Program-made: the position numbers and the translations under genes
Notes under the pieces: generated by a model
What the model was told of the DNA's origin: nothing
Databases searched by the model: none
The model's input: the letters and a program-made list of their open reading frames with translations, nothing else
Shown here: piece by piece, positions 1,419 to 17,377 of the stretch
How the letters are laid out: every line of letters begins with the position of its first letter
Numbering within the stretch: the stretch's first letter is position 1
From: a virus
Lineage: Duplodnaviria; Heunggongvirae; Uroviricota; Caudoviricetes
Reading direction: 5' to 3' (one strand)
Virus record (IMG/VR): IMGVR_UViG_2537561689_000015
Length of the DNA stretch: 24,759 bases

Positions 1419-3890
1419 TTAAAAATCAGCCTGACTCGGGATCAGTTTTTGCCAGATTGCTGAAACGTATTTTGCCTGGTAACGGGCGTCATCAAGTGCA
1501 TTATGGCGCTCACCTTCGAATGGAATAGCCGTTCTGGCATCGAAGTCTATGGCTTTCCCCAGCTCAACGATTGTGCGTACATCGCGATCGTTGTAGTAAC
1601 GCCACGGGCAGGGGATCCCCTGCCGTTCGTATGAACGGCGCAAAATCGTGTTGTCGAAGTTGGCTCCATTTCCCCAGACCTGAACAAAAAATTCGCCGGA
1701 GTTTTCGTCGATAAATTCCCGCAATTGTAACAGTGCATCATCTAACGGGATTTCATCGGTCATAATAGCAGATTGCGCTTCGCGTGATTGCTTAAGCCAC
1801 CATTTAATGGTGTCCCGATCAATGACTCCGCCAGCAGTTTCCAGATCGATAGTCTTACTAAATTCCGGTCCCATATCTCCGGTTTGCGGATCGAAAAATA
1901 TTGCACCTATTGAGATGATCGGGGCATCGGGATTTTTTCCCATGGTTTCAAGGTCGATCATTAGATGGTCACACGTCCTGCTGGTGGATGTGATAACGCG
2001 ATGACCGTTCACCGTAATTAAGGGATCTGCCGTCTCGCCAGTTTCACTATCGCTGGCGTGATCCTGAGCGCTGCCAGCATTCTCCTTGTGTGGATGTTCA
2101 GCGCCTTCCATTTTCTCCGAATCGTCTTCCTGAACTTCAACCTGGTTCTTGTCATCGAATGTTTCCTGGTATGTTGCGTCGCCCATCACCGCGCCACAAT
2201 CAGGGCAGTTGCCGCCGCCGGTCTGGCCGCAGGCGGTGCAGATCTTTTCCGGTTCCTGTTGCACTACTGGTTCAGGTTGTTTCGTTTCTTGCTCGTTTTG
2301 TAACGCATTTGGGCTGTTTTGTTCCGCTTTCTGGCCGTTCTGTTCCGTTTCTTGCTGGTTCTGGTTCACAGAATCGCGGGTTTCCATCCCCTTAACCCAT
2401 TTCGGATCATTCGGGTCGCTAATCCCTTCAATAAATTCACCACGTGATGCAGCAAGCAACTTATCGGCGTCAGGCTGGCTGATATTGGCTGCCTGCATAA
2501 TTTTGTTTACTTCGTCAGCGGTAACTTTTACCGGTTCTGGCTGTGCGGTCGTGTCAGATGCACCAGTATTTTGTTGTGAACCTGAGTATGTACTGTTTTT
2601 GCGGGCGAAATATTCTTCTTTCGTGATTTCAGTAGCCCCGGCAGCCAGCGCCTTATCCAGACCAGAAAGTTTGTTTGCGCGACCGTATTTTTCGCCATCC
2701 TTGTCGGTGAAGAGGAAGTAGAACGGCCCCTCACGCTCTACAGATGGTTCGACTTCCACTTTGCATTCGGTTTTTTCGTTGTCCGGAATTGCCGTTTCCA
2801 CTGCATCAGTTTCTGGTACTGGCGACGAGAGAGTATCAGTTGCGATCTGATTTGTTCCTTCATCTTCAAACACGCCCTTTGTAGTCAGGTATTCAGTAAT
2901 GTATTTGTTCAGTACCACAGGGTCTTTGTGAATGTCGATCGGACGCTCACGGACAAGGCCAAAAATAGTCTGGCGGTCGTAGCGAAGGGCATCAGGCTGT
3001 TTGCGTATTGATGCTGAGATACGCTTCCAGTCTTCGCGGTCGTTGTTGATAACTTCATTTTTTGCCCAGCGATGGATGCTGCCGTCAATGTTTCCGGCAT
3101 CAATGTCACCAGGCCACAGAGCGTAGGCCAGTTCATCATCCAGTGTTTTCCATGTCTGCTTATATTCGCGACGAATGACTGCAGTGACAGGGGGGATATT
3201 TTCTGCTGAGTTTTCAGTGTGCTGTCGGTTGACTCTGGCGCGGGCGAGATCAACAGCAGACGTGTATTTTCCAGTCTCTTTGCGCTCTGCGTCCTGCCGT
3301 TTTTTCCAGTTACGTAATTCAGCCTGAATTTCGGGCCATTTGGCACCCGGATTACATTTGTGTTTAACCCATCCGATAGCGAACAGTTTGCGTTCCGGAT
3401 ACATAGCGTTAATTTCAGGCGTTTTCATCAGTGCTTCAACGATATGCCCGTCAAAGGTAGCAACGTCTTCCTGCAGTAATTCCTGCGCGTCAATCGCCAT
3501 ATCAACGGTGATGTTTTCACATGTACCGAACTTAACCAGGACCGCGTTCTGTACTTCAAGGGACAGCTTGTCAAAATTGACGTTCATCGGATCGGATTCT
3601 GGTTCGACCGGAATAAAGGAAGCGGATTCCTCATCCCAGCGGTTTTCCTGCATATATTCAGCATCCCAGGAATCGAGGGCAGGGCGGGGTATACCGGGTT
3701 TATCCTCGCAAACAAGAAATTTATAAGCGCAGTCCTGAGCAGCCGGATAATGTTCCAGGAATTGCCAGTGAAATTTTGCGCGGGCGCGACGTTCATCACC
3801 GGCTTCAATGGCAGTGGCTACAGCGACGGCACCTTCTTCCTTTATTGCCTGTTCGTCCGGAATAGCGGCGCAAATAAAGACTTTACTCAT
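1419..3890 (-). CDS. Large exonuclease-family protein with C-terminal DnaQ-like DEDDh 3'-5' exonuclease domain
   Basis: 823-aa ORF. C-terminal region carries the three exonuclease motifs DLETMG, WGNGANFD and HNALDDARYQAKY. The central part has a CxxC...CPDC zinc-ribbon-like motif and a Q/E-rich low-complexity stretch. Confidence 0.85.
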   Translation of the reverse strand: MSKVFICAAIPDEQAIKEEGAVAVATAIEAGDERRARAKFHWQFLEHYPAAQDCAYKFLVCEDKPGIPRPALDSWDAEYMQENRWDEESASFIPVEPESDPMNVNFDKLSLEVQNAVLVKFGTCENITVDMAIDAQELLQEDVATFDGHIVEALMKTPEINAMYPERKLFAIGWVKHKCNPGAKWPEIQAELRNWKKRQDAERKETGKYTSAVDLARARVNRQHTENSAENIPPVTAVIRREYKQTWKTLDDELAYALWPGDIDAGNIDGSIHRWAKNEVINNDREDWKRISASIRKQPDALRYDRQTIFGLVRERPIDIHKDPVVLNKYITEYLTTKGVFEDEGTNQIATDTLSSPVPETDAVETAIPDNEKTECKVEVEPSVEREGPFYFLFTDKDGEKYGRANKLSGLDKALAAGATEITKEEYFARKNSTYSGSQQNTGASDTTAQPEPVKVTADEVNKIMQAANISQPDADKLLAASRGEFIEGISDPNDPKWVKGMETRDSVNQNQQETEQNGQKAEQNSPNALQNEQETKQPEPVVQQEPEKICTACGQTGGGNCPDCGAVMGDATYQETFDDKNQVEVQEDDSEKMEGAEHPHKENAGSAQDHASDSETGETADPLITVNGHRVITSTSRTCDHLMIDLETMGKNPDAPIISIGAIFFDPQTGDMGPEFSKTIDLETAGGVIDRDTIKWWLKQSREAQSAIMTDEIPLDDALLQLREFIDENSGEFFVQVWGNGANFDNTILRRSYERQGIPCPWRYYNDRDVRTIVELGKAIDFDARTAIPFEGERHNALDDARYQAKYVSAIWQKLIPSQADF

Positions 3891-3969: not shown

Positions 3970-4173
3970 TTACGGCGCTGTTTTAAGTCCTGCCGGGATT
4001 TCGTTATTATCCATGTGAATAACTTTATCGACCGGATAGCAGTTACCGGGGATTTTTTGTTCTGCTGCGGCAGCCATGCATTCTTTCATTGAACCGTAAA
4101 TGTCAATAACCATGTCAACAGGCTCGCCAGTATTAAGAAAAACAGTCAGAGTGAGGGCAATAGCAGTATTCAT
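3970..4173 (-). CDS. Hypothetical small protein with N-terminal hydrophobic segment
   Basis: Start taken at the internal ATG at 4173, preceded by AAAGGA at good spacing (ORF track extends to 4227). Hydrophobic stretch AIALTLTVFL near the N-terminus. The start overlaps the stop of the upstream ORF as ATGA. Confidence 0.45.
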   Translation of the reverse strand: MNTAIALTLTVFLNTGEPVDMVIDIYGSMKECMAAAAEQKIPGNCYPVDKVIHMDNNEIPAGLKTAP

Positions 4174-4358
4174 TGCCAGTATCCTTTTTGCATCGGGCGT
4201 AAACGTGCCAGCATTGAAAGAATGCATATTTTATTTAATAGCTCCCGTTCGTATTTTCTCTTATTAATGGCATCTTCAGTAAATACTGGGTTACTGATAG
4301 TGACACCAATTTCAAAACAACCTTCAGACGTATTGACGTTTGGTAATAACGTTTCCAT
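4170..4358 (-). CDS. Hypothetical protein (62 aa)
   Basis: Start taken at the internal ATG at 4358, preceded by GAGGA (track ORF 4170..4454). Its stop overlaps the start of the downstream gene (ATGA), suggesting translational coupling. Confidence 0.4.
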   Translation of the reverse strand: METLLPNVNTSEGCFEIGVTISNPVFTEDAINKRKYERELLNKICILSMLARLRPMQKGYWQ

Positions 4359-4547
4359 TATCGCGTCCTCAACAATGAATTTTGTGATGCGGTGCCTGGT
4401 GCCTCCAGGTGACGTTAACCAGTTAATAATTAACGCCGGATACAGAGAACCCACCCATAAGAACCAATACGGAAGTCAACTGGCCTTTTTAACTGTTCCG
4501 CGTGCGCTGAGCCGCATTCACCGCATCACAAAATTCACTTTAAAAGG

Positions 4548-4584
4548 GGCGGGTATCATGGGAAAAACAAAACGGATACCCGCC
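4548..4584 (-). terminator. Perfect 10-bp-stem hairpin, candidate leftward terminator or RNA structure
   Basis: GGCGGGTATC and GATACCCGCC form a perfect inverted repeat around a 17-nt loop. On the minus strand it is followed by CCTTTTAAA, which is only a short T-run. Confidence 0.3.
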
Positions 4585-4924
4585 AAAAGGTAATCAACAT
4601 GGGTTGTTGCAGCGGGATTGTCACTCAGGCGTATGGTCAACCTGACAACCCGGTGGACATTTGCGAGGAACGGAGAACCCCCGCCATACTTACCGCCGCG
4701 CCATTTCGCGGAGTGCCACAACCGGAAGCGCACGGTCGACGAAAATTTAACGACAGGCTATCTATGAACCAGCAACCTCGCCGTGCGCTTTCGCGTTATG
4801 CTCTGACTTTTCAGAGAAATATCCTTTCAGTAAACTGTCAGTGCCGGATGCTCACCCGTGTCCGGCGCACACACTCCACCTCACCCGTGGAGAACTCCTT
4901 AATTACCAACCCTCAGGAGGGTGA

Positions 4925-5158
4925 ATGTTAAAATCAACGCTTATTGCTAAATGCCTTTATCAAAATCGCATGGTAAGCAGCATTTCAATAGGCGAGTCTG
5001 CAGTTAAAAGTATTTTCGAAGAGTACTTTCCCGGGCATGATTTTAATAAATGGAATACCAAATTACCGCCAGCAGTTTCAACGCGTATTCTGAAAGCAAC
5101 TGAAAGAGCAAGTACAATTCGCGTTAACTATTTCATTAAAGATTTGTGGGATCTTTGA
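4925..5158 (+). CDS. Hypothetical protein (77 aa) in an AT-rich segment
   Basis: ATG preceded by AGGAGGGTGA. The gene is AT-rich compared with its flanks and is convergent with the 135-aa gene, with 23 bp of 3' overlap. No recognisable motif. Confidence 0.5.
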   Translation: MLKSTLIAKCLYQNRMVSSISIGESAVKSIFEEYFPGHDFNKWNTKLPPAVSTRILKATERASTIRVNYFIKDLWDL

Positions 5159-5543
5159 TATCCACAGAGCCTAAAGTATGTGCATATGGATGTGCTATTG
5201 TGCGCCCTCGCAGATTTGCATCATTTTCTAAATTCACTGAACGAAACAGGGCATCAACAAGGCTCTGTACAATGCAAAGGCAATCGAAGACTGTCGCCGT
5301 TTCTGTTTTGATTGATGAAAGAACATGGCCATTCACGCAAACAGAAATTACCCGTTTATTAACATCGCTTTCCTGCTTTTGATTATCAGAACCATATAGC
5401 CCTGAAAAAGCATTGCGCACATTACGAACCATATTATCGATGGTTTCTTTTTTGGTGTATGCCGGGTCAATTTTCACCAGACTATCACCGAGTGTCGTTG
5501 CAGCAATTATCTGGATTTCTTTTGGTAAATCTTTAAATTCCAT
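5136..5543 (-). CDS. Hypothetical protein (135 aa)
   Basis: ATG preceded by ACGAGG. AT-rich, and the last gene of the leftward early gene chain. No recognisable motif. Confidence 0.6.
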   Translation of the reverse strand: MEFKDLPKEIQIIAATTLGDSLVKIDPAYTKKETIDNMVRNVRNAFSGLYGSDNQKQESDVNKRVISVCVNGHVLSSIKTETATVFDCLCIVQSLVDALFRSVNLENDANLRGRTIAHPYAHTLGSVDIKDPTNL

Positions 5544-5565: not shown

Positions 5566-5784
5566 TTAACGTGGGTATGTAATCATTCTGGCAATGCTTA
5601 ATGCCGCTGCTTTTTCCAGATTGGTGATATCCTGCTCCAGAGCGGACAGATTTTCAGCCTGCTTAGCCCTGGCTTCATTGGCCCATTTCAGGTCCTGCGC
5701 AGCCTTAATTTTCTGGTGCATCCACTCATAAAGTTCATCATCGGTATAGTCTGGCGCGATGATGACGGGTTCTCGTTTCTGCAT
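5566..5784 (-). CDS. Hypothetical coiled-coil protein (72 aa)
   Basis: ATG preceded by GCGAGGAA. Lies 22 bp upstream of the 135-aa gene on the same strand. Confidence 0.55.
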   Translation of the reverse strand: MQKREPVIIAPDYTDDELYEWMHQKIKAAQDLKWANEARAKQAENLSALEQDITNLEKAAALSIARMITYPR

Positions 5785-5943: not shown

Positions 5944-6109
5944 TCACTCACCTGAGTTTCTTTCCAGCCAGCGACGGGCACCATTTTCGGTTTTAAACGT
6001 TTTGCTTTTGGTATACGTCATCGCGGTGAACGTGCCGTCCTGGTTGGGAAACACGCCGTACACCAGAGATTCGTTGTTACCAAGATCGATAGTATCCATG
6101 TTGACCTCA
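5944..6109 (-). CDS. Hypothetical protein (55 aa), first gene of the leftward early operon
   Basis: Start taken at the internal ATG at 6109, preceded by GAGG. The track start at 6204 would lie inside the predicted pL promoter and operator, so it was rejected. Confidence 0.45.
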
Positions 6110-6175: not shown

Positions 6176-6228
6176 AATTTAGTTTTCTCATGAGTGTTGG
6201 TCAAGTGCTTTTAATGAGAAAACTCAAT
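6176..6228 (-). promoter_or_regulatory. Predicted leftward early promoter (pL-like) with operator repeats (OL)
   Basis: On the minus strand: TTGACC (plus 6199-6204), a 17-bp spacer, then TAAATT (plus 6176-6181). Operator-like TGAGAAAACT(C/A)AA copies lie at about 6178-6191 (minus orientation) and 6215-6227 (plus orientation); the first sits in the promoter spacer. Confidence 0.5.
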
Positions 6229-6288: not shown

Positions 6289-6696
6289 TTACTGATGTTT
6301 GTTACGTTTGCGAGCTTCTAGTAGCTCGGTGAATAGGCGATTAAAATTCTCAACGCGGGCACGGAGTTCGCTGATTTGTGCTTGCTGCTCTGATTTTGGA
6401 AGTGCGCGATACAATCGCAACATCTCCAACTCATCTTCCGATAAGTCTAAGGCGCTGTTGAGTGCAACTGGTGGATCTGGTGTTTTATCCTCGTCACCAA
6501 ACAGTATCCAAGTTGGTGAACATTGCAATACCTCAGCCAGGCGATGCAAATTTTGCCCACGCGGGGCTGTATGGTCGCTTTCCCATAGTGAAATTGATGA
6601 GCCAGATACGCCAGCGGCTTTGCTTAAATCGTTTTGACTTAAACCAACCTGTTTGCGTCTTTCTCTAATTCGTTGACCTAAAGTTTTCTCGTTCAT
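6289..6696 (-). CDS. Prophage repressor, XRE/cI-type helix-turn-helix, without a peptidase domain
   Basis: 135 aa. N-terminal HTH region (QRIRERRKQVGLSQNDLSKAAGVSGSSISLWE) followed by a helical C-terminus. Too short to carry a LexA/S24 autocleavage domain. Divergent from the Cro-like gene. No Shine-Dalgarno sequence before its ATG, so it may be leaderless. Confidence 0.85.
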   Translation of the reverse strand: MNEKTLGQRIRERRKQVGLSQNDLSKAAGVSGSSISLWESDHTAPRGQNLHRLAEVLQCSPTWILFGDEDKTPDPPVALNSALDLSEDELEMLRLYRALPKSEQQAQISELRARVENFNRLFTELLEARKRNKHQ

Positions 6697-11322: not shown

Positions 11323-11533
11323 AAACGGTTTGCGGGGAAATCTTAGTTAAGTAGAATGACTGTGGGTGCTTGAGGCTATCTGTCTCAGGCATGAACACCA
11401 AAAGGCAGATAGAGAAAAGCCCCAGTTAACATTACGCGTCCTGCAAGACGCTTAACATTAATCTGAGGCTCAATCCATGCTGAACACATGTAGGTTAGCC
11501 TCTTACGTGCCGAAAGGCAAGGAGAAGCAGGCT

Positions 11534-11689
11534 ATGAAGCAGCAAAAGGCGATGTTAATCGCCCTTATCGTCATCTGTTTAACCGTCATAGTGACGGCAC
11601 TGGTAACGAGGAAAGACCTCTGCGAGGTACGAATCCGAACCGGCCAGACGGAGGTCGCTGTCTTCACAGCTTACGAACCTGAGGAGTAA
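11534..11689 (+). CDS. hok: Hok/Gef-family type I toxin (small membrane toxin)
   Basis: 51-aa product MKQQKAMLIALIVICLTVIVTALVTRKDLCEVRIRTGQTEVAVFTAYEPEE, which I recognise as Hok-family (closest in my memory to HokD/RelF). Strong AAGGAGAAG Shine-Dalgarno. An in-frame upstream extension from 11477 may be a Mok-like leader reading frame. Structured leader and a terminal hairpin as in hok mRNAs. Confidence 0.85.
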   Translation: MKQQKAMLIALIVICLTVIVTALVTRKDLCEVRIRTGQTEVAVFTAYEPEE

Positions 11690-17127: not shown

Positions 17128-17203
17128 GGCCCTTTAGCTCAGTGGTGAGAGCGAGCGACTCATAATCGCCAGGTCGCTGGTTCAAATCCAGCAAGGGCCA
17201 CCA
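17128..17203 (+). tRNA. tRNA with CAU anticodon (Ile2/lysidine-type or Met)
   Basis: Hand-folded cloverleaf: acceptor GGCCCTT/AAGGGCC, D-stem GCTC/GAGC, anticodon loop CTCATAA, T-loop TTCAAAT, 3' CCA encoded. Resembles the ileX/ileZ-type tRNA of E. coli. Confidence 0.85.
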
Positions 17204-17210
17204 TCACATA

Positions 17211-17287
17211 CCGCCATTAGCTCATCAGGATAGAGCGCCAGCCTTCGAAGCTGGTTGCGCGGGGTTCGAGTCCTCGATGGCGGTCCA
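17211..17287 (+). tRNA. tRNA-Arg (anticodon UCG)
   Basis: Hand-folded cloverleaf: acceptor CCGCCAT/ATGGCGG, anticodon stem CCAGC/GCTGG with loop CTTCGAA, T-loop TTCGAGT, CCA encoded. Confidence 0.8.
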
Positions 17288-17300
17288 TTATCTGTACCCT

Positions 17301-17377
17301 GCGTTGTTAGCTCAGCCGGACAGAGCAATTGCCTTCTAAGCAATCGGTCACTGGTTCGAATCCAGTACAACGCGCCA
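17301..17377 (+). tRNA. tRNA-Arg (anticodon UCU)
   Basis: Hand-folded cloverleaf: acceptor GCGTTGT/ACAACGC, anticodon stem ATTGC/GCAAT with loop CTTCTAA, T-loop TTCGAAT, CCA encoded. Confidence 0.8.

Follow-up and report, generated by a model that had tools for sequence, protein, structure and literature searches.

A probable unnamed small RNA of the DicF/KilS kind in the dicB operon spacer of a lambdoid prophage

What occupies the gap between a run of small minus-strand genes and a lone plus-strand open reading frame (ORF) in the viral record IMGVR_UViG_2537561689_000015? The stretch of this Caudoviricetes sequence that was analyzed, referred to here as the window, is 24,759 nucleotides (nt) long, and the gap covers positions 4359-4925. 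A sequence-only reading had found no convincing protein gene there and had proposed a regulatory leader or attenuator, a small RNA (sRNA), an antitermination RNA element or a decayed gene. The absence of a protein gene is borne out by RefSeq, which annotates no coding sequence in the gap in the 100%-identical genome NZ_CP025916.1. Among the four proposals the small RNA is the best-supported reading, but the RNA lies on the strand opposite to the one that had been analyzed. Our interpretation, to which we assign a probability of about 0.7, is that the spacer carries an unnamed RNA of the DicF/KilS kind that would be Hfq-associated and trans-acting, and whose hairpin would also serve as an intra-operon terminator. 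The element is neither a new element class nor a plus-strand attenuator.

The window corresponds to the early region of a lambdoid prophage, in which positions 4359-4925 are the homolog of the ydfC-dicF-dicB spacer of the Escherichia coli Qin prophage, placed in a DicA/DicB-type early-left operon. In a three-way alignment with K-12 Qin and PPompW, the spacer is ~98% identical outside three short replaced patches at 4678-4655, 4606-4552 and 4486-4461, the middle one being the largest and corresponding to the sRNA itself. The PPompW prophage shares the gene context of the window, including the 77-residue ORF on the plus strand. A 571-nt query (4360-4930) found matches in 4,710 of the 5,426 complete genomes of E. 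coli, mostly with 80-90% identity; the K-12 match has 86.5% identity over 97% of the query length, and E. coli strain 120899, in which the prophage adjoins potC, is identical over the full query. Synteny, the flanking sequences and the Pfam DicB match together place the spacer upstream of dicB in a DicA-controlled operon, which is the location of DicF. The annotated DicF of phage Tritos and that of K-12 coincide exactly in position with the hairpin noted previously in the window, and lie on the operon strand. Because the middle patch is DicF itself, the hairpin is the 3' stem-loop of an RNA that replaces DicF.

Based on position, fold and the series of alleles described below, the predicted small RNA spans 4542-4609 on the minus strand. 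It consists of a single-stranded 5' arm, CAACAACCCAUGUUGAUUACCUUUU (4609-4585), and a 3' stem-loop with arms 4584-4575 and 4557-4548 and a U-rich 17-nt loop (4574-4558), followed by CC and four U residues (4545-4542). The stem is, as described earlier, a perfect 10-bp helix pairing 4548-4557 with 4575-4584 around the loop 4558-4574. With its U run it has the form of a terminator and of an Hfq-type 3' end, with a short tail (CCUUUU) that is U4 in the window and U5 in the variant of the allele seen most often. What the replacement has left in place is the closing GGCGG/CCGCC stem, the AUC-GUUU motif and the U tail; variants of the window type hardly differ from one another in the 5' arm and in the stem, but do differ in the loop. 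The arm segment CCCAUGUUGAUUACC, like the loop, is a candidate pairing region of the window-type RNA. Allele-specific pairing among the three replaced patches was considered and rejected, as cross-allele duplexes were equally good; on the minus strand, neither of the patches at 4655-4678 and 4461-4486 shows allele-specific complementarity to the sRNA, the former lying in a local hairpin (4655-4697) and the latter in the variable stretch of the dicB leader.

Is this RNA simply a diverged DicF that still represses ftsZ and cell division? It occupies the same slot in the same dicB operon, its hairpin starts with GGCGG-AUC-GUUU, and a short pairing of UUUUUCC with GGAGAGA, directed at the Shine-Dalgarno (SD) sequence, can be drawn by hand. 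The Rfam DicF covariance model, for which the gathering score of 48 bits defines family membership, nevertheless has no match at E<=10 in window positions 4200-5300. As a control, loci with the canonical hairpin score 61-77 bits with this model, and nine loci with other hairpins are unmatched. With RNAcofold, pairing of DicF with the ftsZ translation-initiation region yields a free-energy change (ddG) of -15.1 kcal/mol, and 0 of 100 shuffled targets are as good, whereas the window allele yields -2.6 kcal/mol, which 82 of 100 shuffled targets equal or better. RNAduplex applied to the full-length RNAs was uninformative for ftsZ, not distinguishing DicF itself, and was discarded; RNAcofold with shuffled targets set DicF apart from the other alleles. 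The part that is replaced in the window is, moreover, the 3' region of DicF through which it represses ftsZ and which has been mapped genetically as the ftsZ-pairing part (PMC5069750). Judged from its sequence, the RNA at the DicF position of the window is not DicF: the ftsZ-complementary sequence is gone, and we regard a functional, division-blocking DicF descendant as improbable.

DicF is among the oldest known bacterial regulatory RNAs and is usually taken as one conserved sequence, copy-counted in pathogens. Scans of public collections (one genome per species, and viral contigs) with an 18-nt anchor that directly follows the RNA returned ~110 non-redundant loci with ~45 distinct slot sequences. 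Intact alleles all fold as a hairpin closed by GG(C/U)GG/CC(G/A)CC and followed by a U run, the sole exception being a degenerate Shigella copy (L163), and they lie between highly conserved flanks, the upstream helix on one side and the dicB leader, which resembles the STnc100 family, on the other. The DicF type accounts for 72 non-redundant loci, a second type for 14 and the window type for six, and the other alleles and recombinants are represented by several loci each. The alleles are modules of a 5' arm and a hairpin that are found in recombinant combinations: the window arm with a different hairpin (L084, L053), the DicF arm with a different hairpin (L156), and a different arm with the DicF hairpin (L005, L095). 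These data suggest that the one-sequence view of DicF is too narrow. Which gene lies 3' of the leader differs as well, be it dicB, kilR or a third small one, and its identity is not strictly tied to the allele of the RNA. The third gene begins ATGTTGAATGTAGCTATTGAAAACC (MLNVAIEN...), follows the leader instead of dicB or kilR at L005, L033, L053, L063, L066, L073, L088, L091, L114, L132, L163 and L164, and might encode a further factor in division or host takeover.

In K-12, the second type is annotated as KilS (b4833), an sRNA of the Rac prophage. The 3' end of KilS abuts the shared anchor in Rac, and the anchor scan also recovered alleles of the KilS type. KilS was found by Hfq RIL-seq (in which interacting RNAs are ligated and sequenced), verified by northern blot and assigned the partner yncL (Bar et al. 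2021, PMC8175672), so a non-DicF allele of the slot is a documented Hfq-associated RNA; a promoter of its own has also been suggested for KilS (PMC8175672). In the literature covered, from which Faubladier & Bouché 1994 and Melson & Kendall 2019 were missing, nothing links KilS with DicF or describes DicF-like variants. Identity with one of the recently named Pas sRNAs was rejected, as Pas contexts are structural and late genes near Q, holin and esterase.

The window allele is present in 199 of the 5,426 complete E. coli genomes, many of them enterotoxigenic E. coli (ETEC); carriers include ETEC B7A, TW10722, ETEC-2265 and porcine ETEC. At the slot, no RNA is annotated in any of the 85 listed records that carry the allele, and one of them shows a "hypothetical protein" there. 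In the collection with one genome per species, real matches are limited to Escherichia and Shigella, apart from a few contigs of metagenome-assembled genomes (MAGs): L171, assigned to Veillonella parvula, has canonical DicF; L175, from a Proteobacteria MAG, is near-canonical; and L176, from a Nanosynbacter MAG, was recovered through the anchor and upstream spacer only. The copies in MAGs of unrelated taxa most likely reflect bin contamination by E. coli prophage DNA. The Actinobacillus phage vB_Apl-pPE4 (PP818812.1) has an E. coli-type spacer at 87.5% identity, and one Aeromonas and one Salmonella phage record also match the spacer; the host labels or sequence purity of these three records may need to be checked.

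On which strand does the spacer function? The GC-rich character described earlier is confirmed, with a GC content of 0.53-0.56 across 4450-4899 compared with 0.38-0.41 on either side, and a second hairpin at 4841-4868 is likewise present (-20.8 kcal/mol on the plus strand, -14.2 kcal/mol on the minus strand). Compared with shuffled sequences, the segment 4355-4930 is strongly folded in both senses (minus -222.2 kcal/mol, z -5.0; plus -200.3 kcal/mol, z -5.6), and the hairpin at the DicF position, folded alone, reaches z -3.4 in the minus sense (-20.4 kcal/mol) and z -5.1 in the plus sense (-24.8 kcal/mol). The pattern of variation distinguishes the strands. In the leader and in the upstream helices, homologs differ chiefly by G-C to G-U changes, which keep the pairing only in a minus-sense RNA, and the meaningful strand is therefore the minus strand, along which a structured non-coding stretch extends from 4359 to ~4925. 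In its 5' part (4729-4924), a GC-rich, untranslated stretch that includes the second hairpin (4868-4841) and is ~98% identical to PPompW and K-12 Qin, the consensus fold of 65 homologs reaches -57.8 in the minus sense and -34.8 in the plus sense, and the alignment contains 270 G-U cells and 14 A-C cells.

The same upstream part contains a long imperfect helix at 4727-4789 (5' strand 4789-4778, 3' strand 4739-4727), which appears in the consensus of the 65 homologs and, in extended form, in the minimum free energy fold of the single sequence, and whose pairs survive G-C to G-U changes. K-12 has two DicF species, one of 190 nt generated by RNase III and one of 53 nt generated by RNase E (bioRxiv 10.1101/2023.04.14.536235). 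A distance of 190 nt upstream of the annotated 3' end of dicF in K-12 leads to the junction between cgaccgtgcg and CTTCCGG, which corresponds to window position 4728 on the 3' strand of the helix. The helix is thus a candidate RNase III processing site, and mapping from K-12 predicts a long precursor of ~187 nt (4542-4728) as the homolog of the 190-nt species. Within this precursor lies the local hairpin 4655-4697, whose loop and 3' strand are replaced in pairwise alignment with DicF-carrying homologs and which still folds (-11.1 kcal/mol in the window, -10.7 kcal/mol in the canonical version).

Downstream of the sRNA, the structured 5' leader of dicB (4374-4541, minus strand) is the best-conserved part of the spacer, with column identity of 95-99% in an alignment of 74 sequences (A1). 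It folds as a long-range 20-bp helix (4538-4519 with 4394-4375) with inner hairpins, and also has an invariant hairpin, UCACCUGGAGGCACCAGGCAC, at 4412-4392. One-sided G-C to G-U changes occur in the long helix in 27, 10 and 26 of the 74 sequences, with pairing kept in the minus sense only, and the inner helix shows compensatory changes. Positions 4535-4381 align with positions 21-154 of the 206-position STnc100 model (RF02076) at 33.5 bits (E 2.6e-5), which is below the gathering score of 47 bits and indicates a resemblance in fold and not family membership. STnc100-type elements proper are abundant in viral contigs near late promoters, tRNAs and terminators, and a 2026 preprint ties them to PasD near gene Q. 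Their motif TCACCGGGAGGCACCCGGCACC is very common in viral contigs (loci L192-L311), where it is preceded by promoter-like sequence, often just past tRNA genes, and followed by a strong terminator; sometimes two or three copies follow one another at intervals of a few hundred nt, which in several contigs is 484 nt. A fold of this type occurs in two different operon contexts.

The conserved leader and the terminator-like hairpin with its U tract inside the operon mean that the sequence-only reading was partly right in suggesting a regulatory leader or attenuator, with 4541-4374 as the leader of dicB. The plus-strand features on which that suggestion had drawn, however, do not hold up. It would have the region act as a leader or attenuator of the 77-residue ORF governed by an 11-codon ORF, or encode a 110-residue protein. 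The 11-codon ORF, MGKTKRIPAKR (4558-4593; ATG at 4558, stop at 4591-4593), exists as described and is preceded by AAGGGG, but it starts in the hairpin loop in antisense orientation relative to the operon, and most variants of the window allele no longer have its ATG, with CGT or CTTGTG in place of CAT on the minus strand. The 110-residue ORF (4599-4931) also exists and overlaps the ATG of the 77-residue ORF at 4925, but it is intact in the window only: its ATG lies in allele-specific sequence, 53 of 65 homologs have AGA there and a stop after nine codons, and its sole PHROG match is marginal (E 0.004, 18 residues). No promoter-like site was found on the plus strand within 4455-4925, Tritos and K-12 have the spacer without any plus-strand gene upstream of it, and the wobble changes favor the minus strand. 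The somewhat greater stability of the hairpins in the plus sense speaks for this alternative, as does the 77-residue ORF itself (4925-5158, plus strand), whose strong SD and PHROG family imply that some plus-strand transcription must begin nearby. We consider both short ORFs spurious, chance features of the sequence, and a plus-strand leader or a 110-residue protein very improbable. The 77-residue ORF, directly upstream of the spacer on the opposite strand and also present in PPompW phages, matches PHROG 10348 (function unknown) and no Pfam family; its relative place and orientation are those of sieB upstream of KilS in K-12 Rac, and it could be a moron or exclusion gene.

The variation in the spacer also bears on whether a decayed gene could lie there. 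Many homologs do have long stop-free stretches on the plus strand. In the conserved upstream flank (4924-4600), however, the variable columns are spread over the three codon positions without periodicity (38/44/41, p = 0.80), short indels of 1-2 nt occur often, and neither strand has a conserved ORF, codon periodicity or indels in threes. No protein family was matched, and across the 4,710 genomes the region is an intergenic stretch without annotation, conserved at 80-90% or more, in which a known RNA gene lies. The proposal of a decayed gene is thus left without support, and we give a pseudogene remnant hardly any credence. Evidence for an antitermination element was not found either: no boxA-like match lies within 4360-4930, and the eight matches in the whole window compare with 9.3 expected by chance. 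The STnc100 model likewise found nothing in HK022 at 27.6-30.1 kb, the segment taken to hold the put sites; a put-like function of the leader is conceivable.

By analogy with K-12 Qin, transcription would begin at a DicA-repressed promoter near 6200 and pass through the ydfA- and ydfC-like genes into the spacer. RNase III would cut in the long helix at about 4728 to release the ~187-nt precursor, and trimming by RNase E would leave an RNA of ~50-65 nt that ends at the hairpin 4584-4548 and the U tract; if processing follows that of DicF, cleavage in a small hairpin loop near 4602 would produce an RNA of ~60 nt. Bound by Hfq, this RNA may pair in trans through its invariant 5' arm, its U-rich loop or both, with a target set that would differ from that of DicF. 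The hairpin would simultaneously act as an intra-operon terminator that limits dicB expression, and dicB would be expressed only from read-through transcripts, which would carry the leader 4541-4374 and also express the downstream genes.

The main rival to a trans-acting RNA is that the hairpin is only a cis-acting terminator or attenuator and a processing scaffold that sets the level of dicB, the released fragment having no function in trans. In K-12, transcripts beyond ydfABC-dicF were undetected (bioRxiv 10.1101/2023.04.14.536235), so most transcripts stop or end at the 3' hairpin of DicF, and a purely cis-acting role is also consistent with the fact that the alleles share the stem base GGCGG/CCGCC and the U run, whereas the putative seeds differ. 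No target emerged within the window: when the arm and loop were scanned against both of its strands, only the trivial antisense self-match beat shuffled seeds. On the other side, DicF and KilS, which are alleles of this slot, are documented as trans-acting or Hfq-bound, and the 5' arm, dispensable for a terminator, does not vary within the window type and is swapped as a unit between alleles. We therefore consider a cis-only role unlikely, although less so than the alternatives discussed above; terminator and trans-acting roles can coexist.

Several further observations count against a trans-acting DicF/KilS-kind RNA. The transcription, processing, Hfq binding and trans-activity proposed for the window allele are all extrapolated from its homologs. 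The tail has just four U residues and the loop is 17 nt, and the full hairpin was missed by a simple terminator scan. The window allele is a minority type (199/5,426) and could be a non-functional recombinant. Covariation across homologs, proposed earlier as a check, is found in part: the inner helix of the leader shows compensatory changes, and in the upstream spacer both sides change in only 2 of 54 predicted pairs, there being no real covariation because the sequences are too similar.

The genes around the spacer are on the minus strand, a series interrupted by the plus-strand 77-residue ORF, and their order, confirmed by Pfam and RefSeq, is helix-turn-helix (HTH) repressor, DUF1391, ydfC, spacer, dicB, DUF1482 and exonuclease. 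The DicA-like repressor gene (6289-6696) matches Pfam HTH_3, the ydfA-like gene (5944-6099) matches DUF1391, and ydfC (5566-5784) is annotated by RefSeq. Between the repressor and DUF1391 genes, a consensus scan alone gave a promoter-like site, TTGACC-17-TAAATT (6176-6204, minus strand), which is a candidate dicBp-type promoter that could drive transcription across the spacer. Between ydfC and the spacer lies a 135-residue ORF (5136-5543, minus strand) that matches PHROG 1363 (function unknown) and no Pfam family, and that is absent from K-12 Qin and Tritos. On the other side of the spacer, the gene for the cell-division inhibitor DicB (4170-4358; ATG at 4358, SD GAGGA at 4370-4366) matches Pfam DicB (PF05358) at 130.5 bits and is annotated as dicB by RefSeq in the identical genome; it is followed by a ydfD-like gene (3970-4227, Pfam DUF1482) and the exonuclease gene (1419-3890, RefSeq). 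Elsewhere in the window, a toxin-antitoxin RNA locus of the hok/sok type is found at 11364-11539 on the plus strand (Rfam sok, 118.9 bits), and three tRNA genes (Met-CAT, Arg-TCG and Arg-TCT) are clustered at 17128-17377, also on the plus strand. Such a cluster is typical between Q and the late genes in Shiga toxin (Stx)-like lambdoid phages; STnc100 had no match near it.

The allele series raises the possibility, tentative and in our estimate somewhat short of even odds, that the DicF position is a hypervariable "seed cassette", in which ~55-nt arm and loop modules are exchanged by recombination among lambdoid prophages within a constant biogenesis scaffold. The scaffold would comprise the upstream RNase III helix, the closing stem with its U tail, and the downstream STnc100-like leader. 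If seed modules are exchanged in this way, each prophage type would reprogram different host or rival-phage mRNAs; the window allele, common in ETEC, would be an uncharacterized regulator with targets of its own; and the DicF/ftsZ paradigm would cover one of at least six alleles. There is also a gap in annotation, as the slot holds several unrelated-looking RNAs of which Rfam-based annotation sees the canonical one only, the KilS types also going uncalled. Should the window allele be expressed in the manner of DicF and KilS, the prophages that carry it would supply the division inhibitor DicB together with an uncharacterized regulator. With its constant scaffold and variable seed, the layout would lend itself naturally to the study of how RNAs acquired horizontally come to have new targets.

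How the window RNA relates to known systems can be stated feature by feature. It shares with DicF (RF00039) the slot, with the ydfC-side spacer upstream and the dicB leader downstream in flanks that are ~98% identical, the closing stem GGCGG/CCGCC and the U tail, and the upstream helix associated with the RNase III-dependent 190-nt form in K-12. It differs in that ~55 nt of arm and hairpin are replaced, and in that its stem is a perfect 10 bp with an open 17-nt loop, whereas that of DicF is bulged and in two parts. KilS occupies the same slot, being followed directly by the conserved AAAGUGAAUUUUGUGAUG leader of a division-inhibitor gene. Its arm, CAUUGCUGUGUGUAGUC, and its upper hairpin differ from those of the window RNA, so that the two are not similar in sequence and share nothing beyond the flanks, the U tail and the GGCGG/CCGCC stem; the gene downstream is kilR and not dicB, and the upstream spacer in Rac is shorter and different.

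The leader of dicB shares with STnc100/PasD the closing helix, the GGUGAAU junction and the terminal hairpin UCACC-NGG-AGGCA-CCN-GCACC, which has undergone a compensatory G:C to U:A change. Here, however, the context is an early-left operon, upstream of dicB, and the closing helix is extended to 20 bp. Finally, sRNAs located within operons, such as XylZ (listed as intergenic in operon, PMC8175672), are cut out of polycistronic mRNA by RNase E or RNase III instead of having a dedicated gene, as is established for DicF and would be the case for the window RNA. In contrast to these sRNAs, the RNA segment in the dicB operon spacer is allelic and exchanged between phages, and the flanks that would direct its processing are constant.

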